IMG/VR virus record: IMGVR_UViG_3300005289_000054
Strand: one strand, 5' to 3'
Source: a virus
Taxonomy: Duplodnaviria; Heunggongvirae; Uroviricota; Caudoviricetes
DNA length: 64,000 bases
The notes under the pieces are model-generated. The model saw nothing but the letters and a program-made list of their open reading frames with translations, was not told where the DNA came from and made no database searches. The position numbers were made by a program, and so were the translations under genes. Numbering within the stretch: the first letter of the stretch is position 1; each line of letters opens with the position of its first letter. Below are positions 3,755 to 57,855 of the stretch, piece by piece.

Positions 3755-4254
3755 TTCATTTACCTTCTATGTTTAAGCGTTATTGCTTGGTATGAAGCTA
3801 TTAAAACAATTTCTCTATAATATGTCAACAACTATTTTAAATTAATTTTATATTTTTTATCTAATCTTTATAAAACAACAAGTTAATCATTAAAACATTA
3901 CAATATTTATTCTAATAAAGATGATCCTTATCTTAAAACACTTCTAAAGCTAAGATACACACATAGAAACACGCCGTGTAACGTTAATAAAGAGCGGGTG
4001 TGCGTGAATAACACAATTAAGTGGTAAACACAACAATTTAATTGTTATTTATGATGAATGGCATTAAAAATGAGATTATTATCCACAAGAGAATAATTAA
4101 AACAGAAAGATTATCAGTCATTTCTGACCTATCAGATAATATTATAATATTTTGTTCACATATTTTTTCTAATTTTTTTAAAAATTCCCCAAAATTTTTC
4201 ATGTGTAGCCAGATTCTGAGGAATTATTTGGTTTTATTTACAGTGTGATTTTTA

Positions 4255-4590
4255 TCAACCCATCCACATATTGTACAAGAAATGGAATGCAAGGATAAAT
4301 GCAATTACAAATCCAGAGGAAAGGGAAGTAAGCACACAGTAACCAGTGAGCTTATCAACCCATTCAGGAGGGTTATACTCTAACACAGTCGTAACAGCAA
4401 AGACACACAAACATATTAAACTACTTACAGTAAACACAGTGGTAATAATTTGAGCAAACATCTTCATAAACACCTTATTAAGTTGGTAAACACATAATAC
4501 ACCCCCTTGGGTCAAAAGTAAAGCCATTAAAGTGGAAATAATAAGAATATCTGCACACACATCATCCGAGTATTCGAGGATAGAGGACAC
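4255..4590 (-). CDS. hypothetical membrane protein
   Basis: 111-aa ORF with three or more hydrophobic segments. Confidence 0.45.
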   Translation of the reverse strand: MSSILEYSDDVCADILIISTLMALLLTQGGVLCVYQLNKVFMKMFAQIITTVFTVSSLICLCVFAVTTVLEYNPPEWVDKLTGYCVLTSLSSGFVIAFILAFHFLYNMWMG

Positions 4591-4772
4591 AGAGTATTAC
4601 ACATAGGATAGTACCAAGAGACGATGATGTCTCTTATTGAATACTCACATTAGAGAGAAGAGTATTATTCTTAGTTATAGTAAGGATTAGATTAGCATTC
4701 ATTCAATCTAGTCTAATCATATAACTAAGAGGAAGTGTTCTATTGTGCGTAGCACATAATTAGTATCCTGTC

Positions 4773-4792
4773 AACATGCAACGTTGCATGTT
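4773..4792. promoter_or_regulatory. 20-bp perfect palindrome AACATGCAACGTTGCATGTT (candidate operator)
   Basis: Read directly from the sequence. It lies in the divergent intergenic region. Confidence 0.5.
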
Positions 4793-4904
4793 ATATATTT
4801 GTGGATAAGTCAAATAGAAAATACCAATTAAAAAATATAATTAATCTAAAAATAAAATAATTGACATATCTTTTAGAGGTGTGTTTAACCCCCTATATCT
4901 ATTT

Positions 4905-5175
4905 ATAGATAATTTATTACACATTCCAATAATCCTCTAACTACTCCTAACTACTCAAAACCATTAATATCAATACATTCCAATAAAATTACATTACACA
5001 TAATTAGTATTCTACATTACACCTATAGTATCCTATTACACATAAACAATATTCGTATTGACACAAACAATACTTTATTACACATAACATATTGTTTACA
5101 CAATAATAACACTATTTATTACACATATGTTATTCTTCTTAATTACACATAGAATATTACATTTACAAAAGATAT
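4905..5175. repeat. iteron-like array of about eight TTATTACACAT-type motifs
   Basis: Full copies at about 4915, 5074 and 5115, and shorter ATTACACAT variants at about 4993, 5015, 5035, 5095 and 5141. Spacing is 26-41 bp. A second motif CATAATTAGTAT occurs twice, at about 4756 and 5000. Confidence 0.55.
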
Positions 5176-7847: not shown

Positions 7848-8647
7848 TGTCAAAGTACAAATTAAAAGTAACAGATAAATCAAAGAACAGAGAAATTGCT
7901 GATTTATTTGAATGTATTGGGGCTAACCCAATAAGATTTTCTGTTAGTCAAGCTACGCACTTTTTTATGGAAGGGAACTATGTTGGTATTATTTCAGATG
8001 GAGATGATGAGTATTTCTACAAGCAACCTCAAAAAGAAATTAATTATGATGAACTAAAAGCCTTAGTCATTCTTAAAGATGGTAAAAAAGATATTGCTAC
8101 TCACTTTCAAACTTGTGATATTGATGAGAGATATTATGTTGTAAATAATGATATTATTTATTATTACAGCAAGGACAACAATGAATGGGTATTGTCTGGT
8201 GCAAGATTATCAGAATTAGAACCAATCAAGAATTTAAAAATCATCGAAGAAGAGCTTAGTGAGATGGAGTTAATTACTGGAACTTCAGCAATTACAGCTA
8301 TGTTTCTAGGCAAAGATGTAGAGTGGGCTAGACGTACAAACCCTAAAGTGTGGAGAGAATACAAAAGATCGACATCTTTCTCGATTGATTGTCTTACAGA
8401 AGGTGATATCTTATTTAGATTAAAGGAAGAAACCTTCATGATTGGTGGTGTTGAAGTACCAGTTGCAGTAAAAGAGCCAGAATTTGGACAGGTTTATTGG
8501 TTCATTGATGGTTATACTAATACTAAAGGTTATGAAAGAGCTAAATGGGATAATAAGAAGTTTAAATTTCCTCTTGCTTGCTGGGATTCAGAGAAGAAAG
8601 TAAAGAAAGTTGTCCAAGCTTTAGGAAACTTACTACAACCAAAATAA
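7847..8647 (+). CDS. hypothetical protein
   Basis: 266-aa ORF. Confidence 0.55.
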   Translation: MSKYKLKVTDKSKNREIADLFECIGANPIRFSVSQATHFFMEGNYVGIISDGDDEYFYKQPQKEINYDELKALVILKDGKKDIATHFQTCDIDERYYVVNNDIIYYYSKDNNEWVLSGARLSELEPIKNLKIIEEELSEMELITGTSAITAMFLGKDVEWARRTNPKVWREYKRSTSFSIDCLTEGDILFRLKEETFMIGGVEVPVAVKEPEFGQVYWFIDGYTNTKGYERAKWDNKKFKFPLACWDSEKKVKKVVQALGNLLQPK

Positions 8648-8728
8648 ATTAAATGACAGACTTGACAGAAATGTTAGGTCTGTTTTATTATGTAAGAACA
8701 AAATTAATCAGGCTATAAGGTAGTTATT

Positions 8729-9100
8729 ATGGAAACAAATATCAGCGAGACAATCAAAGCAACGAAGAATCATTTACGTAACCTTATTCAAGGTCATGGG
8801 CTAACTAAGCAAGAGATTAGAGATTTGTTTAGTGATGAAATGGCTACATATGTAAAAGATGCGGTTAAAAACTATATTTCTGCTTGGTCATTAGATGAAT
8901 TAATCAAAACAACTATTCATCAAGAAGTACGCCGTCAAGTTGGTATGTTGATTCGCCCTTCATACACACCTGAATTAAATACTAAAATGGAAGATATGGT
9001 TCGACAAGAAATTAACAAAGAAGTTCAACGTCTCGTTAATGAAAACTTTGAAATCAACATTGATTTAAAGAAATCTGAAACTGCTGTTGGGATAAAATGA
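8729..9100 (+). CDS. hypothetical protein
   Basis: 123-aa ORF. Confidence 0.5.
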   Translation: METNISETIKATKNHLRNLIQGHGLTKQEIRDLFSDEMATYVKDAVKNYISAWSLDELIKTTIHQEVRRQVGMLIRPSYTPELNTKMEDMVRQEINKEVQRLVNENFEINIDLKKSETAVGIK

Positions 9101-10434: not shown

Positions 10435-10664
10435 CATGTCATCAAATTAAGAATGGTTTTGTTTGTATGAATCATTTTGAACCAATTAAAGTTCAGATTG
10501 AACCTGATGTTTTTGTATGGTTTGAACATCACAAATCCTTTGGCCCTTTCTTTTGGGCAGATGAAGATTGTACAAATGAATTTGACAGATGGTGGGATAA
10601 TGAAGTATTATCTAAATTCGTAGATGATTATTATGGTTACAACAAAGGAGAAAATGATGTATAA
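10431..10664 (+). CDS. hypothetical protein
   Basis: 77 aa. Confidence 0.45.
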   Translation: MTCHQIKNGFVCMNHFEPIKVQIEPDVFVWFEHHKSFGPFFWADEDCTNEFDRWWDNEVLSKFVDDYYGYNKGENDV

Positions 10665-11544
10665 AAACTACAAGAAGAAGATTGAAGTCTTCTTTAGTCC
10701 AAACACTTTACAGTCAGCATTAATGAATTTTGAGAGAGAATACATTCGACATGAAGTGTTCAAATTTAATGATGGTAGTGTTAAGGTCACAATAAACGAT
10801 AATATTCCAGATCATCATTACTGTGAAATCCACATGTTTATGGAGACTATGGATGATTTAATGGTTGTTGCACAAATTAAAGATATTGTGCAACGAAAAT
10901 CTAAAAGCCCTAAAGACTTTGTACTCTACATTTCGTCTCCTGTTTATTCAAGATATGATCGTGTTATGCTTGATAATCAGACAGATGCTTTTGGTGCTAG
11001 AGTCTTTGCCAATTTTATTAACTCTCTTTATTTTGATAATGTCATTCTATTTGACTGTCATAGTAATGTTATGAGTGGCATGATTAACAACTCTTATAGT
11101 GTAGAACAGAAGCTATTAGCTGAAACATGTGTAGGAAGTTTAGAAAATTTTCTTCTTATCGCTCCAGATAAAGGAGCCTTAGTTAAGAACCCAACAGCAG
11201 ATATTGTTTTAAGTAAAGCTCGTGATGTAAATACAGGTAAGATTATTGGAGTACACCTTGATAAAGTACCAAATGCAAGTATTGATGGAAAAGATTGCTT
11301 ACTTATCGATGATATTTGTGAAGGCGGACGAACATTCACAGAAGTTGCTCATTCGATTAATGCTGAACATTCTCCGAATCTCAATCTCTATATTACTCAT
11401 GGTATTTTCTCAAATAATGCAATCGAAAAATTGCTTGTAGATTATAAAGAAATTTATGTTTACTTTATGAAAGAAAGTGTTTATGATTCACTTTGTATCG
11501 CATATAAAGAGCGATTGAATGTTTACAATTTAATTATTAATTAG
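10654..11544 (+). CDS. ribose-phosphate pyrophosphokinase (Prs) family protein; candidate ADP-ribose pyrophosphokinase (Adps) of a NARP1-type NAD+ reconstitution pathway
   Basis: A PRPP-binding-loop-like motif, LLIDDICEGGRTF, resembles the Prs DDIIDTGGT loop. Length is about 300 aa. The start was set at the ATG at 10654, just after an AGGAG RBS. It lies immediately upstream of the Nampt-like gene. Confidence 0.65.
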   Translation: MMYKNYKKKIEVFFSPNTLQSALMNFEREYIRHEVFKFNDGSVKVTINDNIPDHHYCEIHMFMETMDDLMVVAQIKDIVQRKSKSPKDFVLYISSPVYSRYDRVMLDNQTDAFGARVFANFINSLYFDNVILFDCHSNVMSGMINNSYSVEQKLLAETCVGSLENFLLIAPDKGALVKNPTADIVLSKARDVNTGKIIGVHLDKVPNASIDGKDCLLIDDICEGGRTFTEVAHSINAEHSPNLNLYITHGIFSNNAIEKLLVDYKEIYVYFMKESVYDSLCIAYKERLNVYNLIIN

Positions 11545-11553
11545 GAGAAACAC

Positions 11554-13389
11554 ATGGATTTACTTACTAAACAAAATGAAATTTTTCGATCACTTAAAGG
11601 TCATGTTCCTGTTATTAATCCCTTCTTATATGGAACAGATTCATATAAGATGTCACACATTAAGATGCAAACAGAAGGGGTTAAAGAAATTTATTCAAAC
11701 TTCACACCACGTTTCTCTAAGTATTTAAAAGATATGTTGGGTGATAAGTTCGACAATAAATATGTTGTATTTGGATTACAGTGGATGATGCTTCGTTTAC
11801 ACATGATGGCACAAGAAGGTTTCTTTAATCGTCCTAAAGATGAAGTAATTGCTGAAATGAAAGAAGTATTAACTCCTTACATTGGCAATGATAAGTATGA
11901 TCATTTTGAAGCACTCCATGATCTTGGTTATCTACCAATTGTTGTTAAGACTTTAGATGAAGGTACTATTGCTCCTGTTGGCGTTCCATTTTTAACTATC
12001 CGAAATAGTGTTTTAGGATTTGAATGGTTGCCTAACTTCTTAGAAACTATTATCTCAACTGATTTATGGAAGCAGTTAACTATCGCTACAGTAGCTCATA
12101 TCTTCCGTAAAATTACAAACGAGTTTGCTTTAGAAACTACTGGTAGTATTGAAGGTACAGAGTGGCAGAACCATGATTTCCATGTACGTGGTGCTAGTGG
12201 TTTTGAGAGCGCTGCAATTGACGGTGTTGCCTTCTTATTAAGTTCATGTGGCACTGATAACATTCCTGCTTTGTGGGCTGCTGATAAGTTTTATCAAAGT
12301 TCTAATAAACAAGGATTATTAGCTGGTTCAGTTCCTGCTGGAGAACATTCAGTAACAACTTCAGGTATTCTTGCGGAAGTAGAGCGTGCAGCTTTAGATG
12401 GCGAGGATTTAACTAAAGAACAAGCAGAATACTTCTATGCTCGAAAGATTATGATGGAGCGCTTCCCAACTGGAATTGTTTCCTATGTCGCTGACAGCTA
12501 CGATTATTGGAATTTTATTGGTAAGATTTTACCTTCATTAAAAAATGAAGTAATGTCTCGTGATGGTAAGTTTGTTGTTCGTGGTGATAGTGGTAATCCT
12601 GTAGATGTTATTTGTGGTGTTGTTGAAGATTACGAGGTAATCGAAGCAGATAATGAAGAGGAATTCTTAGAAGCAGCTTATGAGATTATCCATGATAATT
12701 TACAGGATGTAACACCTCATGGGGAATATGGAGGCGATGACCATGATATGAACTTTAGTTGGAATGGTCGTATTTACAATGTTTCTTTCTCAGGATTCCA
12801 ATGGAATCGTTACGATAAACAGTACTACTACTTGGACACTTACCGTTCAGATGTAACTCATAAGATGACTGAGATCAAACGAAATATTGAACACAAAGGA
12901 ACGATTGAAGCACTCTGGGATATCTTTGGTGGTCATGTAAATGATAAAGGTTATAAAGTTCTAGATTCACACATTGGTATGATTTATGGTGATGGTATTA
13001 CTGTAGAGCGTCAGATTGAAATCTTAACACGATTGAAGAACAAAGGTTTTGCATCAACTAATATTGTATTTGGTGTTGGTTCTTACTCTTTAAACATGGT
13101 AAGTCGTGATCATTTAGGAATGGCTATTAAAGCAACTAACCAAGTTTTGGAATTAGATAATGGTATTGTCTTAGACCAACCAATCTATAAAGACCCTAAG
13201 ACAGATACTTCTAAGAAGTCTGCTCATGGTTTGATTAGTGTTCATGAAGATGAGAATGGTGAACTCTACTTTAAAGATAAACAGAATCGTAAGGAAGAGA
13301 AAACTGGTTTATTAAATGTTCTTTATATGAATGGTCAATTTCAGAAGTTAACAAACATCTTTGAAATTCGTGAAAAGATGTGGGATTAA
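11554..13389 (+). CDS. nicotinamide phosphoribosyltransferase (Nampt/NadV) family protein; candidate Namat of NARP1
   Basis: 611-aa ORF with a strong AGGAG RBS. The N-terminus (PFLYGTDSYKMSHI...) and length are Nampt-like, and it is translationally coupled to the Prs-like gene. Confidence 0.7.
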   Translation: MDLLTKQNEIFRSLKGHVPVINPFLYGTDSYKMSHIKMQTEGVKEIYSNFTPRFSKYLKDMLGDKFDNKYVVFGLQWMMLRLHMMAQEGFFNRPKDEVIAEMKEVLTPYIGNDKYDHFEALHDLGYLPIVVKTLDEGTIAPVGVPFLTIRNSVLGFEWLPNFLETIISTDLWKQLTIATVAHIFRKITNEFALETTGSIEGTEWQNHDFHVRGASGFESAAIDGVAFLLSSCGTDNIPALWAADKFYQSSNKQGLLAGSVPAGEHSVTTSGILAEVERAALDGEDLTKEQAEYFYARKIMMERFPTGIVSYVADSYDYWNFIGKILPSLKNEVMSRDGKFVVRGDSGNPVDVICGVVEDYEVIEADNEEEFLEAAYEIIHDNLQDVTPHGEYGGDDHDMNFSWNGRIYNVSFSGFQWNRYDKQYYYLDTYRSDVTHKMTEIKRNIEHKGTIEALWDIFGGHVNDKGYKVLDSHIGMIYGDGITVERQIEILTRLKNKGFASTNIVFGVGSYSLNMVSRDHLGMAIKATNQVLELDNGIVLDQPIYKDPKTDTSKKSAHGLISVHEDENGELYFKDKQNRKEEKTGLLNVLYMNGQFQKLTNIFEIREKMWD

Positions 13390-17088: not shown

Positions 17089-17646
17089 TTATTGCTTATC
17101 TACAAAAGATAGTCTAATCAAGACTCGTCTACAATCTTCAGTAACTATAGGAGAACAATGAAGCTCTCTTCCATACATATACACTCTATTTGGCTCACAC
17201 TGCTTCACTACGCCATCTTCTTTATAATGAGTACCAAATATATTAGAATAAATTAAGTGCGTCTCATGCTTATTAGGATGGTCATAATCACGTACCCAAT
17301 CATAATGGTAATTGTTGTACCAATCTCCAGAACCTCCTTTCTTCAAGTCTCTAACTTTAACATCTAAATAGCATAACTCATAATCTTCAAATTTCCAAGT
17401 GGAGTAAGCTAACATAGATTTAATTACATTTCCAATTGCTGGGTGCAGCATATTAGCCACATAAACTAAATGATCTGCATCTTTAATCAATTTATATTTA
17501 ATTTCTAAAAGATCTGGCAAATCTTTTTTGTCAATAGGTTTAAATTCAATAGGTAACTTCTGCATATTTTCTCCATAATAAAATAGGACTCTATTAGTTA
17601 GAGTCCTATTATACTTAATAATATGATAAGGTTTTAGTATCCACAA
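17089..17646 (-). CDS. hypothetical protein
   Basis: 185 aa with a His-rich segment, HYDWVRDYDHPNKHETH. Any 2OG-Fe oxygenase-like fold is only a guess. Confidence 0.45.
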   Translation of the reverse strand: MWILKPYHIIKYNRTLTNRVLFYYGENMQKLPIEFKPIDKKDLPDLLEIKYKLIKDADHLVYVANMLHPAIGNVIKSMLAYSTWKFEDYELCYLDVKVRDLKKGGSGDWYNNYHYDWVRDYDHPNKHETHLIYSNIFGTHYKEDGVVKQCEPNRVYMYGRELHCSPIVTEDCRRVLIRLSFVDKQ

Positions 17647-18440
17647 TAATAATCCTCAACATCTAAAATTAAAGCTCCGTCTAAATATTTAGCCTTAATT
17701 TCATAGTTAGTATCATGAATATCATCTAAGAAACTAACAAAGTTATCAATAACTTCAAAAAATAACGTATTATCTTTTAAATGAGTATTAATAGTTGTTT
17801 TGCTATCCTGATCATACTCAAATAACGCCCCCATGTCCTCATCTTCATCAACTTCCAAATAAAGATCATCGTGAGTGAATCCATAACCTGAGTCTTTTTC
17901 AACACACAGAGAATAATCATAACTATGCTCACATGGTTCACCATCATTAAAGCTTGGTGTGTATCCACGAGTTACAACAGCAAAGTTACCAAATTCCTTA
18001 CCAATAAGCTTAATATAAGCAAAGATATGCTCTTCTTTAAGACTACCAAGAATTTTCTCATACTCCTGTTTAGCAAGAATAAAAGACTTTACCACTTGTT
18101 CTTCTGTTGTTAAACCAACCAAACCAAGTGCTTGATACACACGCTCATCAATATTAGCACCACGAGACAATGATTCTTTGTAATAATCTAAACTCGTTTG
18201 TTCTGGCTCCCATTGATCTTCCAAGCCATAGCATGAGCAATGACTTCCATGCACTTCATACAATTCACCATCAACACTCTCGAAGATTACCAACGAACTA
18301 CCAGAGTAATCCTCATAAGTGTAATCAGCAAAAATAATCTTACCAACAAGTGCTCGATCATGATCAGATACTTGATATGTGTCAAGAATTTCTTTCTCTG
18401 TTGCCTTGGCAAAGTCATTAATAAAAATTTGTTTATACAT
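17634..18440 (-). CDS. hypothetical protein
   Basis: 268 aa. Confidence 0.5.
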   Translation of the reverse strand: MYKQIFINDFAKATEKEILDTYQVSDHDRALVGKIIFADYTYEDYSGSSLVIFESVDGELYEVHGSHCSCYGLEDQWEPEQTSLDYYKESLSRGANIDERVYQALGLVGLTTEEQVVKSFILAKQEYEKILGSLKEEHIFAYIKLIGKEFGNFAVVTRGYTPSFNDGEPCEHSYDYSLCVEKDSGYGFTHDDLYLEVDEDEDMGALFEYDQDSKTTINTHLKDNTLFFEVIDNFVSFLDDIHDTNYEIKAKYLDGALILDVEDYYCGY

Positions 18441-21186: not shown

Positions 21187-21290
21187 TATGTTTTCCTATA
21201 TGCTTAATATACAGACAATAAAAAAAGATGTCAACATTAAGTTAACATCTTTTTAAAATTAATTTATGTTTTATGAATTAACTAAAGTTT

Positions 21291-21755
21291 CTATTTCTTT
21301 CCATCATCTTTTGGATCACCATTTAAATCTTCTTTCATGTCATGCTTAATCTGTTCAAGCTTCATATTAACAATCTGATAAACATCATCTGTACTCTTCT
21401 GAAACTTATCTGATGTCACCACTTGTTGACCAATATAACCAGCAGTCATTAAGTAAACTGTACGTTCATCAGGAATCGCTACAGCAACAACTGCAAACCC
21501 CGTAAATAAACAAAATAAACCAATAAGCGTCTTTTTATAATTGAATAGTATTGGTCGTTCATCCATATCAGCCCAATATAAAAAGGAAACAACAGCAATA
21601 ACTGTTAAAACTATGAGACCTACAATCGCAAATAATCCAAACAACTTTGCAATTCCTGATGATACACTTGCAAACCAAATCAATAATGCTAATTCCATAA
21701 TAAACTCCAAATTTTCAGTATAAAAAAGGAAGAGAGTAAAAGCTCTCTTCCACAC
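21291..21755 (-). CDS. hypothetical integral membrane protein
   Basis: 154 aa with 3-4 predicted TM segments. Its real start may be an internal Met. Confidence 0.45.
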   Translation of the reverse strand: MWKRAFTLFLFYTENLEFIMELALLIWFASVSSGIAKLFGLFAIVGLIVLTVIAVVSFLYWADMDERPILFNYKKTLIGLFCLFTGFAVVAVAIPDERTVYLMTAGYIGQQVVTSDKFQKSTDDVYQIVNMKLEQIKHDMKEDLNGDPKDDGKK

Positions 21756-21758
21756 ATA

Positions 21759-22421
21759 TTACTTAGTTTGTTCAGCTTTTAAAGCTTCAAGACGATCACG
21801 AACACTTAACTTAGCTGTTTCTTTCTCAACGAAATCTACATCATTACCAAGCTTCTCATCGATAATTTCTTTAGCTTCTAATTTGCATTTAGCTTTAGTC
21901 ACACGAGCACGTAAATCTTCAATGCTAAAGGCATTAATTGTTCCATCACCACCTTTCAACTCAAGCATTAGTTTGTAATTCTTTTCTTCCAAATCAAGCT
22001 TATCAATCTCGTCCTTTAATGCTTGAATCTCTTCTTCCATTGAAGATACGTTATTAATAATCTTATCAACAATAGGCTGTAATTGAGCGTTAGAGTTGTT
22101 TAGTGTCTCATTGATCTTCTCAAGACGATCAACTTTCGCTAGAGATTTAAGAGCCTCATCATCTTGACCTAAAGACACTTGTTTTCGAGCAAGCTCTGTT
22201 GCCTTCTCAATTACATAGTTGTTGGCCTCAACCTTAGATTTATTTTCTTGGATTGCTTGTTGTGCTTTAGTAGCACGTGACTTTAGTTCTTTAGATTGCC
22301 CTTCCAACTGTTTAATCAAAGCACCGCCTTCACGTTTAATATCTACTGCACTATCAACAACTTTCTCAATCTTCTCTTCTACAACGTTCTTACCAATTTG
22401 GAATAATTTAAAAAATGACAT
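21759..22421 (-). CDS. PspA/IM30-like coiled-coil protein (tentative)
   Basis: 220 aa. The N-terminus, MSFFKLFQIG..., resembles the PspA MGIFSRFADI start. The protein is long, heptad-rich and charged throughout, and its length matches PspA (about 222 aa). Confidence 0.4.
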   Translation of the reverse strand: MSFFKLFQIGKNVVEEKIEKVVDSAVDIKREGGALIKQLEGQSKELKSRATKAQQAIQENKSKVEANNYVIEKATELARKQVSLGQDDEALKSLAKVDRLEKINETLNNSNAQLQPIVDKIINNVSSMEEEIQALKDEIDKLDLEEKNYKLMLELKGGDGTINAFSIEDLRARVTKAKCKLEAKEIIDEKLGNDVDFVEKETAKLSVRDRLEALKAEQTK

Positions 22422-22445
22422 TTTGTTTCTCCGAGTGTTTTAAAA

Positions 22446-22955
22446 TTAAGTATTACTTTCGAGTAGTCTGTTTATATCGATTGATATGTTGTACTTCCTA
22501 CATGACTCAATAATATCTCCATGTGATTTTAATGTCAATACCAAATTATGAAATTCCTGCATATATTTTTCAGAATCCTTGCAGCGATAGCGACCATCAT
22601 GCGTAACTTTTGTTTTAAGTAAGTTACGAGGGAATTTGTCTGGAAGGTATATATTTCCATATTCACACTGTTTGTATGTAATATAGTAATCCCATTCATC
22701 ATCATCCCTATGTCTTTTGTGATTATTATTAACCTCTACGTGGTAGTTATTATATGGTAGCCCAAAAACAGACACAATAAAATTATAATCCTCTATGTGC
22801 TGATCTCGGAGATATTCTTTATTCAACATACCTCGCAATTTATCACCAATTGAATAAGGGGTAGGTTCTGTTTTTTCCTCTTTATTTGCAACCATCAGGA
22901 TAACAAAAGCCAAGATAGGTAGCATTAGAATAACAACAAACAACCAACTAAACAT
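22446..22955 (-). CDS. hypothetical protein with N-terminal TM anchor
   Basis: 169 aa. Confidence 0.45.
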   Translation of the reverse strand: MFSWLFVVILMLPILAFVILMVANKEEKTEPTPYSIGDKLRGMLNKEYLRDQHIEDYNFIVSVFGLPYNNYHVEVNNNHKRHRDDDEWDYYITYKQCEYGNIYLPDKFPRNLLKTKVTHDGRYRCKDSEKYMQEFHNLVLTLKSHGDIIESCRKYNISIDINRLLESNT

Positions 22956-23173
22956 TACTTATCTCCTTTTGAGTCAGCATCTTCAAACACTTCATACTGA
23001 TCTTCTACAATATTCCAAATAATCAAAATAAACATTAGAAAACAAAATAAAACGATATCTTTTGTTATCCCTGTTATCGCCATGATAAAAGCCACAAACC
23101 CAAGGTTAATTGTTGATCTAGACGAAACTAAATCAATCGTCTTATCTTTAAACTTATTAAGAGTATATTTCAT
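22955..23173 (-). CDS. small membrane protein
   Basis: 72 aa with one or two TM segments. Confidence 0.4.
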   Translation of the reverse strand: MKYTLNKFKDKTIDLVSSRSTINLGFVAFIMAITGITKDIVLFCFLMFILIIWNIVEDQYEVFEDADSKGDK

Positions 23174-23216
23174 AGTGTTCCTCTAGAGGGTGTCTTTGAC
23201 ACCCTGTTACACAGCA

Positions 23217-24020
23217 TTAGTGATTTGTATTCCCTAAACTTTGGAAGTTATGTGGAACAATAATTGTTGAAACTCCACCACGAGATGCAGCAATCTTAAG
23301 AGCCTCTGCTTCTGTTACACGGGCTTGAGCGTTTAATAGGTTTACATACTGAGCGTCAGCTTGCTGTGCTAATACTTTCATCTTCTCTTGCTCAACCTTA
23401 GCAACCTCTAATTCATTCTTTCGTGTCTTAAGGTCTTGCTCACTCTTCAGAATAGCAGCAGATGAAGCTGTAATCTGAGCTGGTGGTGTGATATTAAGAA
23501 TGTTAATCTCATTTACACGAACAAACTTACTCTTACCTTGTTGCTCAAGTTTCTTATTAATAGCATCCTTAATCTCTGACTCAATCTTTGTTCGGTTATC
23601 ATTCACCTCTAAAGCCTTATATCGAGATACAACATCATTAACAGATGACTTAGCAACATATCCAACATAGTGCCCTAACAAGTAAACATCACCATCACTT
23701 GTTGTCATATTTTGAGCTTTCTCAGTTTTGTAAGCAATTGCCGCATTGTCTGGAACAATACCATAGTTTACTTTCATTTGAAAGTCCTGCATAGCAATCT
23801 TTTCTTGAACAATAGGATTGCTATTCACATTTAAAACAAGGTTACGCTTAGACACTTTAATAACATCACCAACCACTGTTTGGTGCAATCCTTGAGTTAA
23901 TACTTTTTCTTCGATTTCACCAGTAAATGTCTCACGAATACCAACTTCAGAGTCCATAACTTTTGTACAACCAGTTACTGACAAACCAACTAAACCTAAA
24001 ACAAATAATCTTTTTAACAT
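23217..24020 (-). CDS. SPFH/band-7 (flotillin/HflK-like) lipoprotein (tentative)
   Basis: A signal peptide with lipobox (LSVTGC), followed by an SPFH-like start (EVGIRETFTGEIEEKVLTQGLHQ) and a C-terminal coiled coil. The start was taken as the MLKRLF Met. Confidence 0.45.
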   Translation of the reverse strand: MLKRLFVLGLVGLSVTGCTKVMDSEVGIRETFTGEIEEKVLTQGLHQTVVGDVIKVSKRNLVLNVNSNPIVQEKIAMQDFQMKVNYGIVPDNAAIAYKTEKAQNMTTSDGDVYLLGHYVGYVAKSSVNDVVSRYKALEVNDNRTKIESEIKDAINKKLEQQGKSKFVRVNEINILNITPPAQITASSAAILKSEQDLKTRKNELEVAKVEQEKMKVLAQQADAQYVNLLNAQARVTEAEALKIAASRGGVSTIIVPHNFQSLGNTNH

Positions 24021-24041
24021 ATAACTCTCCAATAATTAAAA

Positions 24042-24416
24042 TTAATCTACATACTTAACAAATACAGCACAAGGGCCATAATCTGTATCATGAATACTCA
24101 CAAGGAAATAATCCTTTGTTGGGGGTTTTGGATTCCATTGACTTAAAGCCCATACCCAATTTTCTGTCTCGTAGAATTCAACAGTTAACTCTTCATCTGC
24201 ATCGTCTTCAAACATAATTACTGCTGTTTGAATTCCTTCACCATTTAAGGCTTCATACCAGACGTCATTAGGAATTAGCTCACTATCTCCAAAACAATCT
24301 AGGAACTTCGACCAAGTCTTGTTTGAATAAAATCCATACTCATCCCTAATAACAGGCATAGGAATAATGTTCCTGCTCGGAAGAACAACCTCTTTAATAG
24401 CTTCTATATTAATCAC
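24042..24416 (-). CDS. hypothetical protein
   Basis: 124 aa. Confidence 0.45.
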   Translation of the reverse strand: MINIEAIKEVVLPSRNIIPMPVIRDEYGFYSNKTWSKFLDCFGDSELIPNDVWYEALNGEGIQTAVIMFEDDADEELTVEFYETENWVWALSQWNPKPPTKDYFLVSIHDTDYGPCAVFVKYVD

Positions 24417-24678
24417 ATTTTTTATCCTTTCGATTCTTAATCTTCTTAAGAATATATTGTGAAATCCAATCTGTCAACAACTTTAATAAATAAATTAATA
24501 AGACTAGAAATGAAGCAGGAACAACAATAACCCAACCAATAGCTGCCATAGCTACAATAAACCAAAACCAAAGCGGTTCTTCCTTTCTGCTCTCTGCAAG
24601 ACCATCAAAGAAATTACAAAGAACATTTGCAATTGTACCAAACACTAAAAATGCCAAACACATACTAAAAATTAACAT
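24409..24678 (-). CDS. small membrane protein
   Basis: 89 aa with 2-3 TM segments. Confidence 0.4.
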   Translation of the reverse strand: MLIFSMCLAFLVFGTIANVLCNFFDGLAESRKEEPLWFWFIVAMAAIGWVIVVPASFLVLLIYLLKLLTDWISQYILKKIKNRKDKKCD

Positions 24679-24847
24679 TCTAAAAACCTCCTAATTCCCT
24701 ATAATATCCAACGAAATGTTAGTATAAACTACAATACCAGACACCCCAAATCCTAAAATTAAATGTGTCCACCAAGGAAAACTATTCATATAAAATATGG
24801 AAGCTAATAATAGGTACATAACAAATAAAGTTAAATTAATTATGAAT

Positions 24848-25078
24848 CTAACCATCGCAACCTCCTTCTAATAATGCAATTTCAATGACTCCCTGCAAGT
24901 CATAATCAAAACAATTTAAAGAATCAAATAACTTGTCGTTAATAAAAACTCTCCAAACGCTATATGGCTCATCACAATCGGGTGCATATTCAACAGCATG
25001 TGAAATATACGTTTTATCATCTACTATAATCAAATCACCATTAAAAGACACATTCATTGTAATAGCTTGACTATTCAT
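24848..25078 (-). CDS. hypothetical protein
   Basis: 76 aa. Confidence 0.4.
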   Translation of the reverse strand: MNSQAITMNVSFNGDLIIVDDKTYISHAVEYAPDCDEPYSVWRVFINDKLFDSLNCFDYDLQGVIEIALLEGGCDG

Positions 25079-42529: not shown

Positions 42530-43519
42530 TCAAAAAGGAAGGTCATCATCTAAGTCTTCGTTACTAACTACAGTGTTAGAAGCTGGAGTAGATACTGTAT
42601 CATTCTTTTTAAATGTGTGAGGACGAGCTTCTAAAAGTTGTGCTTGGATTGCACTTCCTTCGAAGTTTGTAGCATTCTCAATTGTGTTGATAATGTGTTT
42701 ACGAAGCTCTTTTAAAGCCTCTGGATCGTTCTCTTTGTTAAACTGAATCAGATAGGTTTTATCTAACTCAATCTCTTTCTGTCCACGCCCTAAACCACCT
42801 ACAAAAGAAAGTTTCTCTTTGTAGTATTGTTTTCCATCTTTACCTTGCTCATTAAAGATTTGAACTTTAAATTGCATTGTTTTACCAAGTAAAAGATCGA
42901 CATCTTGAGGTAAGAACGCCTCACCTTGCTTTCTGACTTTAGAAGCTACTGCCATTTTATAAGGCAATGAAGTGCTTTTCATAGTCCAACCAACTTTATC
43001 ATCTTTAGTGATTTTTAAAGGTGTTAAGTTTTGGATTTGCATTTTCTTTTGGAACTTATTCCAATACTGACCACCAGACCATAAACGTAATGGTCGAGTT
43101 TCACCAGAATCATCTCCAAAGAATTGTCCTTTATCCAGTTGGATATCTGGAAAATCCACAGCATATGCAATAGATTGACGATCTTTTTGTGGAACAAACT
43201 TACGAAGTACCCAATTTTTTGAAACTGAATCGTAAGACTTATCAAACTTAGTGATTTTACCATCCTCAATTTCTTGAGCATATTTCTCTGTCAATTCAGC
43301 AGCAGTCTTACCAACATCCTCTCCTTGCAAATCGTATTCTGCATCTGGTTGTTTTTGAGAACCAAGATCAACAATCACAGAAATAACACCAGTTAATGTT
43401 TCAGGCTCTTGACAAGCTGCTGTCTCAATGACATAGTTGTTAAGTGCATCAAAATCTACTGTTGGTTTCTTAGATTCATTATTTGAGTTAGTGCCTACGC
43501 TGTATGCATCAAAAGACAT
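42530..43519 (-). CDS. ssb: single-stranded DNA-binding protein (SSB) with acidic C-terminal tail
   Basis: 329 aa ending in EDLDDDLPF. This tail resembles the DDDIPF tail that bacterial SSBs use as a protein-interaction tip. The gene lies next to the replication genes. Confidence 0.5.
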   Translation of the reverse strand: MSFDAYSVGTNSNNESKKPTVDFDALNNYVIETAACQEPETLTGVISVIVDLGSQKQPDAEYDLQGEDVGKTAAELTEKYAQEIEDGKITKFDKSYDSVSKNWVLRKFVPQKDRQSIAYAVDFPDIQLDKGQFFGDDSGETRPLRLWSGGQYWNKFQKKMQIQNLTPLKITKDDKVGWTMKSTSLPYKMAVASKVRKQGEAFLPQDVDLLLGKTMQFKVQIFNEQGKDGKQYYKEKLSFVGGLGRGQKEIELDKTYLIQFNKENDPEALKELRKHIINTIENATNFEGSAIQAQLLEARPHTFKKNDTVSTPASNTVVSNEDLDDDLPF

Positions 43520-54441: not shown

Positions 54442-57400
54442 TTAATTAACATCTTTTAATATCTTCGATGCAGCCTGACCAAACACCAATAATCCATTTG
54501 GATTGTTGGGATGACAGTAGTCTGCTGACCAAAGCTTAGAAGACTTTTTAATTACAATGGATGCGCCATTTGCTGGAACATTGGCATCAAAAACCAACTG
54601 ATAAGGCTTAAATAAGGTTGAATCATTACTTAATGTTGGGTCGGTAATCCCACTTGCCCAGTGCATTGATAAACCGCCAGTAATACGGCATTTCTTGTGT
54701 TCAACACCATCGACTGTAACAATCCAGTCTCCCAATACATATGCCGTGCCACTGACAGCATAAGAACTTGCCCCAGTGCTCGTTATTGTTTGATGAGTTG
54801 TCATGGTTTGTGTGTGTTGATACAAGCGAGTCGCATTATAGAAATCAACAAAAGTGATGTTGTAATCTTTTGCGATCTTTTGACCGAGCTCACGGTAGCC
54901 AAATAAACGACGATGATAGTAATTTGGGATACCACTTGTGCCGATTGCAAATTTACAATCAGGTAAAGCAGACCAAACAGTGTCACACAATGTTTTGACT
55001 TGAGATGCCCATGTCGGTGCATTTGTAATAATTACATGTTCACCAACAAGATCTGACAACGTATTGCACTGATAGAAATCAGATGCAGAGATTGTTCGAT
55101 TTAGGGTGATTGTATTAGTAGCACTGTTGTACGATTTAATCATGCGAACAGCAACACGACTTACTTTGCCACCATAATTACCGATAGTTACAACATCACC
55201 TACTGCAATACCTGTATCTGTGATGCTTGATGCAAGCTGAATAGTGCTTTCAGTTATTGCAATGATTGGAAGCCTTGTATCTGTAACCGTCTTATTGTCA
55301 GAAGTGCCTGTAATCGTTGTGAAGTAATTACTTGAGCTATCTGCAAGGATTTGAGCATTCGTCAAACCCGATCGTGTCATAGTCGCTTTTGCTACAAATG
55401 TTTGCCAGTCATCATTCGTGCATGACTCCAACAAAACAATGTCAGGATTAAAGTTAATGACTTCACTAATCGTATTTAACTTAATAGCATGATCAATAAA
55501 GTAATCAGCCATCCAACCGCCAATACCAGCATTCATAATATGATGCATACGGTTAGTGACAAAATTCAAATCAAGATATGGAGTTGATCCAGTTGCACCA
55601 GTAGCTAAACTTTTAACAAGCAACTTAAATTTGCGAGATTTAATATCGTCAAACTTGTATGTCACTACAGCACGACTATCTGATTGTCTAAATCCAATGC
55701 CACTTGATACAGAAGCAGGCAATGTCGTATCAAATGATACTGATCCATCCCCATATGCACTTTCTAAATTTGAAGTGAATCCAACTGCAACATTCCCAAG
55801 CGTTCCACGCATATGCGAAATGCTTTCACCGTAGTTGTAATTAATGTTAATATTTCCAGTTGGTGCGACTTTAAACCAGATTTGATGAGTCACTTTGTTT
55901 AAAGTGCTGTTGTACTTTCTAGTAACCATGTAATCATCTGATGCGGGAATAGTTCCACCCGCACCTTGCACATTCAAACTACCCGTCTTAGCGACACCAT
56001 CTACTGTTACAGCGTGACCATATGTAAAGCATTCTTCTAGATCAAATTTGAGATCAGCACCATTACCTGTGAATGATTTTGAACGAGTACCAAAGGGTAA
56101 TGTATTTAATGTGCTGAAAGTGTCATAGAGAACATCATCTACATACACTTCAATATTTGCTGCGCCTGCATTACCACGCTCACGACCGATTGAGATTGAT
56201 AGCTCATCACCACTTAGTGTGAATTCAGTAAAACTATTAACACCTGAAATACGCTTAGCTTGACCTAAATACCAATTTTCACCTGTCAGGGTAGTTGCTG
56301 TTTGAGCAACATCTTTAGCATGTAATGTACTTGCATATTTAGTTCGAAAATTTTGTTCAATGATACCAACAAAACTTTGCTGACCCAAATAACCCTGACC
56401 CCAAGTGATTGATGAGCCTGCAACTGCAATTCTATACGGTTTTGTAGCTAAGAAAGTTGAACTTGACTGCGTAGAGATCTGAGCAATAGCAGATGTATTT
56501 GCATCTGCAATTTCACGAGCTAATGCTAAGTTCTTAGCTGTTGGGTTGATCTTTAATGCACTATTTGCATTGTTAAGTAGCAAGCCATCGCTTAATGAAT
56601 CCCAATCAATTGTCATTTTTGCAGTAAGTGCACTTGCACCAACTGGTATTAAGTCAACTGTTTGAATCCCTTTTCTCTGAACACCAAGCTCATTAAACTG
56701 CATTACAGACAGACCAGCATTATTAGCAACAAAGATGCGGTTGCCATAGCTCACATGGTTTTTTGCAAAAACAGATATTACAAAATATGGGTAAGCATGG
56801 GTGCCTGTTACTTCAATCCCTTTAATTGCGTACGCAAGCTTTTTGTCAGCTTCACTTGCAATAGAGAAAGCTGTCTCATAAGTTGGAGCTAACCAAATCG
56901 GCTTATTTGTCTTAAATGGCTCAGCAACTTTTGCAGTATTTTGAGATACTTCGTTATATAAATTGCGTGCTGACTTATCGATATAAAGCCGAGATGATGA
57001 GCTAAGCGAAGCGGAAAAACCATCTGGCAATGCATCCCAATTTATCGTAGCAAATCCTGACACTGTAGCTCCAGTTAAGGCTACGGTCTCTTGCCCTTTC
57101 TTGATAACTGTTGAGTCGGCAATATAGCTACTAACAACTGCACTGTCATCTAGAACAAGAACACGTGAACCTAATGTACTATGGTTTTTAGTTACTGTCG
57201 CAACACGATAGTTTGTGCTCGAATTAGTGCCTGTTAAAGACAGTGCTGATATTGATAAGGCTGCTGTTTTAAAGTCTGCCGAACTTAACAGAATGTCAGC
57301 TTTTTTGGAAAGATCTAACCAAGGTTGCTTTAACAGTATGTCTTGATTGATCATGGTTACTTTTGAGTCTGTATATGCCTTTGAATCTGTCAAAGAGTCA

Positions 57401-57855
57401 TAACCTTTTACCCAAGCCGTTCCATTATAGTAATAATCACCATTATTAGTTGCTGTTGGGTCGTTCATTACTTTAGCAACTTGACCTGTAGTCATACCTG
57501 TTGCTGCTTGTAGGTTAGCTAACGTATCAAAGGCTTTGAAGTAACCACCAGAAACCGTACCAACTTTTGTATCTATCTCTGATTTAGTATATGTTTCCGT
57601 TTTTTTATAAACATCTGAAATATTTGCTTTAGGTGAAACAAGACTGTCTGTTTCAATTTTAGTATATGTGGTAGCTTGATCAGCTTTTAAAGAAACATCT
57701 TGTTTTGTTGCGACATCTTTAAAGTTTACCAACCAATCACGAATTGTTAAGAAAGTTACAGCATAATTGCCGTAACCTCCAGTTGGTACTTTTAAAGCAT
57801 CTTGTATCTGAGATGAACTTAATTCTGGTGCATCTACAATTCTTAAATCTGCCAT
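54442..57855 (-). CDS. large tail fibre protein with C-terminal SGNH/GDSL hydrolase-like domain
   Basis: 1137 aa. Its N-terminal anchor region is paralogous to the next fibre (KVPTGGYGNYAVT ... LKADQATTYTK). There are internal repeats (TINWDALPDG and TIDWDSLSDG). The C-terminal motifs AGSSITWG, ESCTNDD and DYCHPN fit SGNH blocks I, III and V. Confidence 0.6.
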   Translation of the reverse strand: MADLRIVDAPELSSSQIQDALKVPTGGYGNYAVTFLTIRDWLVNFKDVATKQDVSLKADQATTYTKIETDSLVSPKANISDVYKKTETYTKSEIDTKVGTVSGGYFKAFDTLANLQAATGMTTGQVAKVMNDPTATNNGDYYYNGTAWVKGYDSLTDSKAYTDSKVTMINQDILLKQPWLDLSKKADILLSSADFKTAALSISALSLTGTNSSTNYRVATVTKNHSTLGSRVLVLDDSAVVSSYIADSTVIKKGQETVALTGATVSGFATINWDALPDGFSASLSSSSRLYIDKSARNLYNEVSQNTAKVAEPFKTNKPIWLAPTYETAFSIASEADKKLAYAIKGIEVTGTHAYPYFVISVFAKNHVSYGNRIFVANNAGLSVMQFNELGVQRKGIQTVDLIPVGASALTAKMTIDWDSLSDGLLLNNANSALKINPTAKNLALAREIADANTSAIAQISTQSSSTFLATKPYRIAVAGSSITWGQGYLGQQSFVGIIEQNFRTKYASTLHAKDVAQTATTLTGENWYLGQAKRISGVNSFTEFTLSGDELSISIGRERGNAGAANIEVYVDDVLYDTFSTLNTLPFGTRSKSFTGNGADLKFDLEECFTYGHAVTVDGVAKTGSLNVQGAGGTIPASDDYMVTRKYNSTLNKVTHQIWFKVAPTGNININYNYGESISHMRGTLGNVAVGFTSNLESAYGDGSVSFDTTLPASVSSGIGFRQSDSRAVVTYKFDDIKSRKFKLLVKSLATGATGSTPYLDLNFVTNRMHHIMNAGIGGWMADYFIDHAIKLNTISEVINFNPDIVLLESCTNDDWQTFVAKATMTRSGLTNAQILADSSSNYFTTITGTSDNKTVTDTRLPIIAITESTIQLASSITDTGIAVGDVVTIGNYGGKVSRVAVRMIKSYNSATNTITLNRTISASDFYQCNTLSDLVGEHVIITNAPTWASQVKTLCDTVWSALPDCKFAIGTSGIPNYYHRRLFGYRELGQKIAKDYNITFVDFYNATRLYQHTQTMTTHQTITSTGASSYAVSGTAYVLGDWIVTVDGVEHKKCRITGGLSMHWASGITDPTLSNDSTLFKPYQLVFDANVPANGASIVIKKSSKLWSADYCHPNNPNGLLVFGQAASKILKDVN

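Follow-up and report, generated by a model that had tools for sequence, protein, structure and literature searches.

A PspA-like protein and an SPFH lipoprotein encoded side by side in an Acinetobacter myovirus: probably two separate membrane-directed cassettes

We analysed a 64,000-nucleotide stretch of DNA (referred to here as the window) from the viral record IMGVR_UViG_3300005289_000054, and in particular a run of minus-strand genes encoding a 220-residue protein that resembles PspA (positions 21759–22421) and an SPFH-domain lipoprotein (23217–24020). PspA and Vipp1 represent the bacterial branch of the ESCRT-III membrane-remodelling superfamily, and SPFH proteins are universal membrane organisers. 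An earlier note, made from the sequence alone, had grouped the seven consecutive genes at 21291–24678 into one membrane module. All seven open reading frames (ORFs) were confirmed at these coordinates, and both protein identities (PspA/ESCRT-III-like; SPFH lipoprotein) are very likely correct. The genes themselves, however, probably belong to two cassettes. Cassette A (24855–23217) appears to comprise g54, g89, a g124 insert and the SPFH lipoprotein gene, and cassette B (22955–21728) g169 followed by the PspA-like gene. By prediction, each joins a large membrane-organising protein to a small integral membrane protein, with the two cassettes on opposite sides of the inner membrane, and their adjacency would be a juxtaposition of two separately inherited units. 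The combined statement, namely that two independent mobile membrane-directed cassettes with the roles proposed below lie side by side in a ~91-kb TaPaz/phiAB441-type Acinetobacter myovirus, is one that we favour modestly. The components of the two cassettes are as follows (TM, transmembrane; HMM, hidden Markov model; AF2, AlphaFold2).

24691–24855, minus strand: g54, small hydrophobic protein of 54 amino acids with one or two TM segments (TM scan); first gene of the SPFH cassette
24409–24678, minus strand: g89, 89 amino acids, two TM segments and a basic C-terminal tail (TM scan, HMM); conserved SPFH partner
24042–24416, minus strand: g124, acidic soluble protein of 124 amino acids, phrog_1372 (PHROG, 1e-18; TM scan)
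23217–24020, minus strand: SPFH/Band-7 lipoprotein of 267 amino acids with a signal peptide, an SPFH domain, a long coiled-coil helix and a C-terminal IIVPxxFxSLG segment (Pfam, lipobox, AF2, Foldseek)
22446–22955, minus strand: g169, 169 amino acids with an N-terminal TM helix (TM scan, HMM); conserved neighbour of the PspA-like protein
22510–22538, minus strand: sigma-70-type promoter TTGACA-17-TATTAT (consensus match, 11/12) that would serve the PspA-like gene and lies within the 3' end of g169
21759–22421, minus strand: PspA/IM30/Vipp1-like protein (ESCRT-III superfamily), 220 amino acids, all-helical, predicted cytoplasmic (profiles, AF2, Foldseek; phrog_26980)
21728–21751, minus strand: intrinsic terminator with a 9-bp G+C-rich stem and a T-run, 8 nucleotides past the PspA-like stop codon (fold)

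Identity of the PspA-like and SPFH proteins

Pfam family PF04012 spans the PspA-like protein end to end (residues 3–220 of 220) with a score of 18.9 bits (E 1.2e-3), below the curated gathering cutoff of 33.9 bits; among the aligned members of its family, 15 of 28 match PF04012 at E<=0.01. This single-sequence match and a six-sequence profile, which reached Vipp1 in the PDB at E~0.4, were weak starting points, and deciding the identity took profiles of 26 to 28 sequences. One of these, A3, yielded E 5e-14 against Vipp1/PspA structures; because it included two bacterial PspAs and was thus partly circular, we discounted the result and rebuilt the profile from phage sequences only. The 26-sequence phage-only profile matched Vipp1 and PspA chains in the PDB at E 3.7e-4 to 1e-3, with a collinear alignment of positions 8–219 against 4–217. 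Compared with P0027, a bona fide bacterial PspA, it gave an hhalign probability of 95.9% (E 5.5e-9, 189 columns).

The AF2 model of the protein has an overall predicted local distance difference test (pLDDT) score of 72, rising to 85–98 in the hairpin, and consists of helices spanning residues 14–83, 87–155, 167–190 and 207–219. When the model was compared with the PDB by Foldseek, ranks 1–11 were all occupied by Vipp1 and PspA structures, with TM-scores of 0.48–0.61. The GxD..A..L motif of the hairpin turn is formed by G85, D87, A90 and L94, the last three of which are invariant in the family, and it aligns with the corresponding turn in Vipp1 and bacterial PspA. The N-terminus is likewise PspA-patterned (M-S-F-F-K-L-F...). 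Hydropathy and sequence scans of the protein revealed neither a TM segment nor a signal peptide, and for this reason it is predicted to be cytoplasmic. Clustered at 50% identity, its small, phage-restricted family makes up 22 groups in a set of 1.84 billion representatives.

Collectively, the profiles and the model point to a true but divergent PspA/Vipp1 homologue of the ESCRT-III superfamily, so that the resemblance proposed in the earlier note for 21759–22421 is upheld. It is hardly credible that the protein is merely a generic coiled coil with a structural or scaffold function and a compositional likeness to PspA: the Pfam match below the cutoff lies among other coiled-coil matches, the six-sequence profile reached only E~0.4 and a pattern scan of genomes drew an SMC coiled coil, but against this stand the end-to-end collinear alignment, the hhalign probability, the placing of Vipp1/PspA ahead of other hairpins in the Foldseek ranking, the largely conserved turn and the position of the gene far from the structural module. 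The SMC coiled coil, which came from an Asgard metagenome-assembled genome in the profile scan of genome contigs with the PspA-like family, was rejected as a chance match. Pattern-plus-profile scans of viral contigs returned two loci each for the PspA-like and SPFH proteins because the pattern step was stringent. In phage TaPaz (L024), a 56-residue ORF at 43262–43432 on the minus strand matched the PspA-like profile at E 1.6e-5 and is either a fragment or coiled-coil noise.

For the SPFH protein, the start codon is the ATG at 24020, which is served by a GGAG ribosome-binding site and yields 267 residues; the length of 271 residues given earlier corresponds to an upstream TTG. The identification as an SPFH lipoprotein stood without change. 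Pfam PF01145 (Band_7) matches residues 25–209 with 54.7 bits, above its cutoff of 23.6 (E 1.7e-14), and the protein belongs to phrog_200, 'lipoprotein'. The N-terminus, MLKRLFVLGLVGLSVTGC, contains an n-region with Lys and Arg, a hydrophobic core and the lipobox VTGC with Cys18, as defined by the pattern [LVI][ASTVI][GAS]C ending a signal peptide; the residue at position +2, which bears on sorting between the inner and outer membranes, is Thr. The AF2 model (pLDDT 81) comprises an SPFH domain at residues 18–178 and a long helix at 181–246 (about 65 residues), and the C-terminal VPxxFxSLG segment is conserved in the family. Foldseek matched the model over its full length (240–296 columns) to prohibitin, HflK/C, stomatin, erlin, QmcA and flotillin at E 1e-12 to 1e-8, the best matches being prohibitin and HflK/C at about 1.5e-12. 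Solved SPFH proteins were only marginally similar in sequence (QmcA, E 3.8e-3). As modelled, the protein has the full cage-forming SPFH architecture.

Homologues that are 62–65% identical to the SPFH lipoprotein are encoded in the chromosomes of A. shaoyimingii and A. equi, where they stand alone among housekeeping genes. These carry an N-terminal TM anchor after a charged N-terminus at the position of the lipobox in the phage copies. The lipobox Cys is kept in the lipoprotein-type members, most of which lie on phage-sized or short metagenomic contigs. From the lipoprotein signal, and from the N-in orientation of the TM anchor of the chromosomal homologues, the SPFH domain is predicted to face the periplasm, as in HflK/C. 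The phage gene appears to derive from, or to share ancestry with, a TM-anchored Acinetobacter chromosomal SPFH gene. In A. shaoyimingii (CP049801, L012) the chromosomal homologue, at 8001–8834, adjoins a 4.5-kb stretch without called genes, probably the CRISPR array, on the far side of which is an operon for type I-F Cas proteins (Csy1-4).

Two cassettes or one module

The window has a G+C content of about 32%. Its minus strand encodes a DNA polymerase, a primase-helicase, a ribonucleotide reductase, an exonuclease and ThyX, and its plus strand carries NAD-salvage genes. The seven ORFs lie within a stretch of small early/middle-type genes downstream of ThyX, far from any structural module; they sit in the early/replication arm and not in the structural arm. 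Protein-level matches of the window genes were exclusively to Acinetobacter myophages, and megablast of the region against GenBank phages gave no match at the DNA level. The phage thus appears to be new at the DNA level, its nearest protein-level relatives being phiAB441 (88 kb) and TaPaz (94 kb), which are collinear with it. A protein identical to the 220-residue PspA-like protein is encoded on ~91-kb metagenomic contigs with the Joint Genome Institute (JGI) label 'Phage shock protein A (IM30)'. Close relatives of the window lineage are represented by two loci (L008 and L009), and a more distant one by the contig IMGVR_UViG_3300044475_000054.

A g89 HMM constructed from the window lineage only and searched with Z=1e6 picked out, in phiAB441, the ORF that immediately precedes SPFH (5e-23) and the ORF at the same position in the distant contig (2e-14) and in the T4-like phage AbTZA1 (4.5e-12). 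In these three genomes the stop codon of the g89-like gene abuts the SPFH start codon or lies at most 8 nucleotides from it (TAAATG, TAAAATG and an 8-nucleotide spacer). In the Salmonella phage PhiSH19, a Kuttervirus (JN126049, L018), an unannotated 72-residue ORF with two TM segments, at 2432–2650 on the minus strand, extends over the start codon of the gene for the SPFH lipoprotein, an arrangement like that of g89 and SPFH in the Acinetobacter phages. Phage SPFH cassettes may generally include a partner with two TM segments that has been overlooked. Homologues of g54 precede the g89-like gene in the two close relatives; in phiAB441 the sequence upstream of the g89-like gene shows a tail of the PWW...TNI.LD type, and AbTZA1 has a 57-residue TM ORF at the g54 position. 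By comparison, g124 is a lineage-specific insert between g89 and SPFH, found only in the window lineage (L008, L009); phiAB441, AbTZA1 and the distant contig lack it at this place. Cassette A accordingly recurs in phiAB441, the distant contig, T4-like AbTZA1 and Kuttervirus PhiSH19. Just upstream of the SPFH cassette, AbTZA1 (L006, 8997–9494) and Herod (L019, 3301–3975), two unrelated Acinetobacter phage types, encode a related soluble protein of about 165–225 residues; its N-termini, MKYAGIGSRR... and MFRVALIGSRE..., recall by eye DprA- or SLOG-type proteins.

Cassette B shows the same kind of conservation. With the g169 HMM, the ORF that immediately precedes the PspA-like gene was matched in Acibel004 (1.6e-13) and TaPaz (1e-11), and in a second iteration that of the distant contig (1.3e-11). 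In the Saclayvirus Aci05 the homologue (Aci05_132, 3.2e-13) lies one gene further upstream, and the tblastn matches of g169 in Ab3, Ab5, Ab7, BS46 and Phab24 all adjoin the PspA-like gene. The cassette is thereby conserved across six or more lineages, including TaPaz, Acibel004 and Saclayvirus. In TaPaz (L001) the PspA-like gene is preceded by a tandem pair of g169-family genes (3975–4451 and 4462–4938), of which the second is very divergent (E 5e-5 within the genome).

The distribution of the two cassettes separates them. When all ORFs of the complete genomes were searched (hmmsearch --max), TaPaz contained the PspA-like and g169-like genes, and SPFH and g89 were not found; phiAB441 contained SPFH and g89, and the PspA-like and g169-like genes were not found. 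GenBank holds 28 phage genomes with a PspA-like gene and 27 Acinetobacter phage genomes with an SPFH gene, and the overlap is 0 of 55. The PspA pair of TaPaz is located in the opposite, divergently transcribed genome arm. The distant contig carries both in the reversed order, with the PspA-like gene upstream of SPFH at a distance of about 4.6 kb.

The PspA-like gene also looks like a self-contained, independent transcription unit. A promoter of the form TTGACA-N17-TAxxAT and a hairpin/U-tract terminator flank it in nine loci, namely the window and eight others (L008, L009, TaPaz, Acibel004, IMGVR_UViG_3300044475_000054, Aci05, D22 and phiAbaA1). The window terminator at 21728–21751 folds with −14.6 kcal/mol (z −4.9), and the terminators of the window and seven of the other loci (D22 left out) all have folding energies of −13 to −18 kcal/mol and z-scores of −3 to −6. 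Their stems differ between lineages, with compensatory changes between the window and the two close relatives. The annotators of Acibel004 had also marked the promoter and terminator of the PspA-like gene. With a promoter and terminator of its own, the PspA-like protein is probably made early by the host RNA polymerase. Across the window, we counted 13 near-consensus promoters (>=11/12) as compared with 4.5±1.9 in shuffled sequences, on strands that match gene orientation (minus strand, 21234, 22538, 31695, 39195, 43750, 47030, 49819 and 52426; plus strand, 8662, 9115 and 10582). This roughly threefold, strand-matched excess suggests that much early/middle transcription is carried out by unmodified host RNA polymerase. 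A general promoter scan of the 4.5-kb region showed no enrichment (20 found, 20.1 expected from shuffles). Terminators lie 3' of the SPFH gene in phiAB441 and the distant contig, whereas the window lineage has a conserved hairpin without a U-tract at this position.

Taken together, the promoter and terminator of the PspA-like gene, the occurrence of cassette B only in TaPaz and of cassette A only in phiAB441, the absence of overlap among the GenBank genomes, the predicted export of the SPFH domain as opposed to the cytoplasmic PspA-like protein, and the soluble nature of one of the seven proteins speak against the single membrane module of the earlier note.

Proposed roles and competing explanations

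We propose that the PspA-like protein, made early, would form polymers at the inner membrane's cytoplasmic face; g169, a candidate membrane partner, may recruit it there. PspA homologues are recruited by PspBC or LiaI. Pairing with small membrane anchors is also documented for PspA and YdjG/H (PMC8581546). By analogy with bacterial PspA, the polymer would limit ion leakage and keep the membrane sealed, preserving the proton-motive force (pmf) during infection; the leaks countered might be those caused by injection of the genome, by superinfection, by a holin that fires prematurely or by pore-forming effectors of abortive infection (Abi). This pmf-protection function is put forward tentatively, as a possibility with somewhat less than even support. 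On the other face of the membrane, the SPFH lipoprotein, predicted to be exported and lipid-anchored, would most likely build, together with g89, a periplasm-facing cage or microdomain, with candidate clients among FtsH-type proteases, channels for transport or injection, and receptors.

Several observations weigh against this two-cassette reading with its proposed roles. Both cassettes are adjacent and kept together in the two close relatives, where the order g54-g89-g124-SPFH-g72-g169-PspA-g135 is intact (PspA-like proteins 68–71% identical), although at that distance everything is syntenic; both genes also co-occur in the more distant contig. Adjacency and co-occurrence together leave room for cooperation between the cassettes. 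The Pfam score of the PspA-like protein, as given above, is under the gathering cutoff, and a membrane-binding amphipathic helix α0 is not established statistically: the N-terminal hydrophobic moment is 0.49 (0.46 in P0027), a value that a fraction of 0.15 of shuffled sequences reach, and residues 1–16 have a low-confidence pLDDT below 50 in the model. The topology of g169 is ambiguous, since there are no positive charges N-terminal of its TM helix and the C-terminal flank is acidic; the soluble domain of g169 may therefore lie in the periplasm, where it could not bind the PspA-like protein. The promoter calls are consensus matches only. The functions proposed here and in the earlier note (pmf or membrane protection, anti-Abi activity, exclusion, lysis timing) are put forward as plausible candidates.

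Among the other explanations, superinfection exclusion would have early membrane proteins of one or both cassettes alter the envelope and block later adsorption or injection, in the manner of T5 Llp or T4 Imm/Sp. The genes do lie in the early region, the PspA-like gene has a host-type promoter, and the SPFH protein is predicted to be an exported lipoprotein, as are several exclusion proteins. T5 Llp is an exclusion lipoprotein. Ltp is one as well (PMC3952083). Furthermore, the SPFH gene of PhiSH19 adjoins a gene annotated 'superinfection exclusion protein' (PMC3220722), and a gain-of-function truncation of pspA in Klebsiella alters the envelope and blocks phage adsorption (PMC12234005). Searches of Pfam, PHROG and PADLOC, however, yielded no homology to any known exclusion protein, the 'exclusion' neighbour in PhiSH19 is soluble, acidic and not conserved in Acinetobacter phages, and the location of the chromosomal SPFH homologues among housekeeping genes suggests a general membrane role. 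We therefore regard exclusion as doubtful.

Unlikely, too, is one cooperative trans-envelope module akin to PspA-YdjGHI, in which the small TM proteins g89, g72 and g169 link an SPFH scaffold to the PspA-like polymer and SPFH microdomains thereby recruit PspA or position it to repair the membrane. In B. subtilis the SPFH protein YdjI is needed, with YdjG/H, to bring PspA to the membrane (PMC8581546), and an ancient link of ESCRT-III with SPFH proteins is on record (PMC10936438). The gene for P0027, the nearest non-phage relative of the PspA-like protein that was found, is directly followed by an SPFH gene with Band_7_1 and Zn-ribbon domains, the order SPFH-g72-g169-PspA is kept in the close relatives (PspA identity 66–71%), and the distant contig carries both genes. 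Against this, YdjI and PspA are both cytoplasmic, whereas the phage SPFH protein has a Sec/lipoprotein signal and its chromosomal homologues a type-II-like anchor, both of which would place it in the periplasm; moreover, the separate transcription of the PspA-like gene, the complete genomes with one cassette, the lack of co-occurrence in 55 GenBank genomes and the distance and reversed order in the contig are not what such a module would lead one to expect. The P0027 gene and its SPFH neighbour (L016, 3611–5539) form a pspA-ydjI-type pair on a metagenomic contig that also carries PcrA/UvrD-type helicase, PHP and Trp-repressor genes.

A stronger version, in which the two cassettes are united by cooperation and a periplasmic SPFH cage is coupled to a cytoplasmic PspA polymer via g89, g72 and g169, would make them a two-sided membrane-repair or insulation device that neutralises pore-forming Abi effectors or blocks superinfecting genomes. 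We consider this rather improbable; if true, the device would give the ancient ESCRT-III-SPFH partnership a counterpart in viruses, in a topology unseen in cells. Very improbable is an anti-defence decoy, whereby the PspA-like protein mimics host PspA as a substrate for conjugation by Cap2 of CBASS (antiphage signalling based on cyclic oligonucleotides) and the cyclase is kept inactive: B. subtilis carrying B. cereus CBASS conjugates the cyclase exclusively to PspA, which is thought to hold it inactive (PMC11153139), and the PspA-like gene has a strong early-type promoter of its own, but the idea is purely speculative, nothing ties Acinetobacter CBASS to PspA, no defence or anti-defence family was matched and the membrane-protein neighbour g169 indicates a role at the membrane.

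Known systems, neighbouring genes and the rest of the window

The phage protein shares with the PspA/Vipp1 (IM30) family a length of about 220 residues, an all-helical fold and a long α1-α2/3 hairpin followed by two shorter helices. It differs in being only about 15–22% identical to solved PspA and Vipp1 proteins, in forming a small phage-restricted clade and in being carried as an autonomous promoter-gene-terminator unit. Unlike the canonical Psp system (pspF-pspABC), it has no pspBC or pspF nearby, and a novel family, g169, takes their place. Acibel004 gp66, TaPaz_151, Aci05_134, phiAbaA1_131 and the BS46 protein are true homologues with 31–42% identity. The PspA genes of these Acinetobacter myophages share their length, promoter/terminator flanks and a TM-protein neighbour with the window, but their genomes lack the SPFH lipoprotein cassette. 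In Acibel004, phiAbaA1 and the window alike a pair of NAD-salvage genes is present, in the two phages a few genes upstream of the PspA-like gene.

As for the SPFH protein, HflK/HflC, QmcA, prohibitin and stomatin have the same succession of anchor, SPFH domain, long helix and C-terminal segment, and the predicted periplasmic side is that of HflK/C; HflK/C-type proteins are TM-anchored, whereas the phage protein is lipid-anchored by prediction, and for the phage protein a connection to FtsH is only a candidate. SPFH/Band-7 genes have been listed in T4-like phages (44RR, Aeh1, RB43) since 2006 (PMC1524935) and are found in the Vi01-like phages PhiSH19 (PMC3220722) and Sajous1 (gp200; PMC10892097). 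Like the window gene, these belong to phrog_200 'lipoprotein' and have an SPFH domain and, where checked, a lipobox; the Acinetobacter versions are 25–30% identical to them or less, and the small upstream partner with two TM segments was previously unannotated. Operons of the SPFH-NfeD type differ in the partner, which in the phage is an 89-residue protein with two TM segments and of no known family. The B. subtilis pspA-ydjGHI (samGHI) operon resembles the window in encoding a PspA homologue, an SPFH protein and small membrane proteins together (PMC8581546), but YdjI is cytoplasmic and co-transcribed, whereas the phage SPFH protein is predicted to be exported and the phage genes form separate transcription units that segregate independently.

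The earlier note knew of no characterised phage-borne combination of this kind. This remains so in that our literature search turned up no experiments on the PspA or SPFH proteins of phages, and the papers on TaPaz and vB_AbaM_P1 do not mention the PspA-like gene; the claim to novelty is nevertheless weakened. Homologues in Acibel004, TaPaz, Aci05 and phiAbaA1 bear GenBank labels such as 'putative shock protein A', 'PspA/IM30 family protein' and 'putative phage-shock protein', the phage SPFH genes have long been listed, and the Kuttervirus SeF3a protein gp125 (phrog_1203), a phage PspA homologue, was proposed in 2022 to be an anti-Abi factor that prevents loss of pmf (PMC9409062). SeF3a is, like the window phage, a virulent phage with a PspA homologue, and the hypothesis is that of the earlier note; as the two proteins belong to different PHROGs (phrog_1203 and phrog_26980), they were probably acquired independently. 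Kutterviruses also carry an SPFH lipoprotein (PMC10892097), and a pspA-like gene is carried by jumbo gut phages (PMC12880540). The pair are thus correctly identified membrane proteins of known, annotated kinds, for which a module is not demonstrated. What is new are the partner families g169/PspA-like and g89/SPFH, including the uncalled ORF of PhiSH19, the autonomous promoter/terminator structure of the PspA-like gene, the anchor-swapped SPFH relatives in host chromosomes and the juxtaposition of the cassettes.

The role of PspA and SPFH proteins for a virulent phage has so far only been guessed at (anti-abortive infection, 2022). Here, the PspA-like gene, which looks self-contained from promoter to terminator, is always accompanied by one particular TM protein, and in three unrelated phage groups the SPFH lipoprotein has a small protein with two TM segments as its companion. 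Such separable units offer clean two-gene constructs for A. baumannii, a host of interest for phage therapy. They also caution that adjacency in one genome is not evidence of a module, and their significance would rise sharply if the cassettes proved to cooperate across the membrane.

Beyond the two cassettes, the region contains the following features.

23187–23203, minus strand: perfect, conserved hairpin GGGTGTC-AAA-GACACCC that lacks a U-tract and immediately follows the stop codon of SPFH (read from sequence)
22955–23173, minus strand: g72, lineage-specific single-TM protein of 72 amino acids (TM scan; homologues only in L008 and L009)
21291–21698, minus strand: g135, 135 amino acids with about three TM segments, phrog_3878 (TM scan; PHROG, 3e-20)
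21206–21254, minus strand: terminator-like hairpin (21222–21254) overlapping a near-consensus promoter (21206–21234) and closing the g135 unit (scans)

Five small TM or membrane-anchored proteins had been described in the earlier note. Four of these do contain hydrophobic segments; in g124 the hydropathy scan detected no TM segment. An eighth small TM gene, g54, lies outside the original seven and belongs with the SPFH cassette. The ORF that had been listed with 154 residues starts at the ATG at 21698 and encodes the 135 residues of g135, because the terminator of the PspA-like gene is located inside the GTG-initiated extension and a GGAG precedes the ATG. In phiAB441, g135 lies 1.4 kb downstream of SPFH in a genome without a PspA-like gene, and in TaPaz it is about 5 kb from the PspA-like gene on the opposite strand; its distribution appears to be independent of both cassettes. 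The stem of the hairpin at 23187–23203 is kept in the two close relatives while its loop differs, and it lies just before the ribosome-binding site of g72; the hairpin may have a part in RNA processing, stability or attenuation.

Searches of NCBIfam and PADLOC with the eight proteins gave nothing meaningful, the PADLOC-DB hits being at chance level (E>=0.0037). No Psp family (PspB/PspC, PspF) was detected among the eight by Pfam and NCBIfam, the g169 family has no Pfam domain, and g89 has no family match in Pfam, NCBIfam or PADLOC. NfeD was not matched in g89, g54 or g72 beside SPFH (Pfam, NCBIfam); with 89 residues and two TM segments, g89 has no room for the OB-fold (PF01957) and is thus not an NfeD. 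For want of any family match, g89 was also rejected as an analogue of T4 Imm, and it is unrelated to the 'superinfection exclusion' gene product of PhiSH19, which is a soluble protein.

Elsewhere in the window, the NAD-salvage pair consists of ribose-phosphate pyrophosphokinase and nicotinamide phosphoribosyltransferase genes at 10624–13389 on the plus strand, with the near-consensus promoters at 8662, 9115 and 10582 ahead of it. A 1137-residue ORF at 54442–57855 on the minus strand has no PHROG match at E<=1e-5. At 17634–18440, also on the minus strand, a 268-residue ORF matches an 'integrase' PHROG over residues 33–95 only, which probably reflects a shared DNA-binding domain and is not evidence of a temperate lifestyle.

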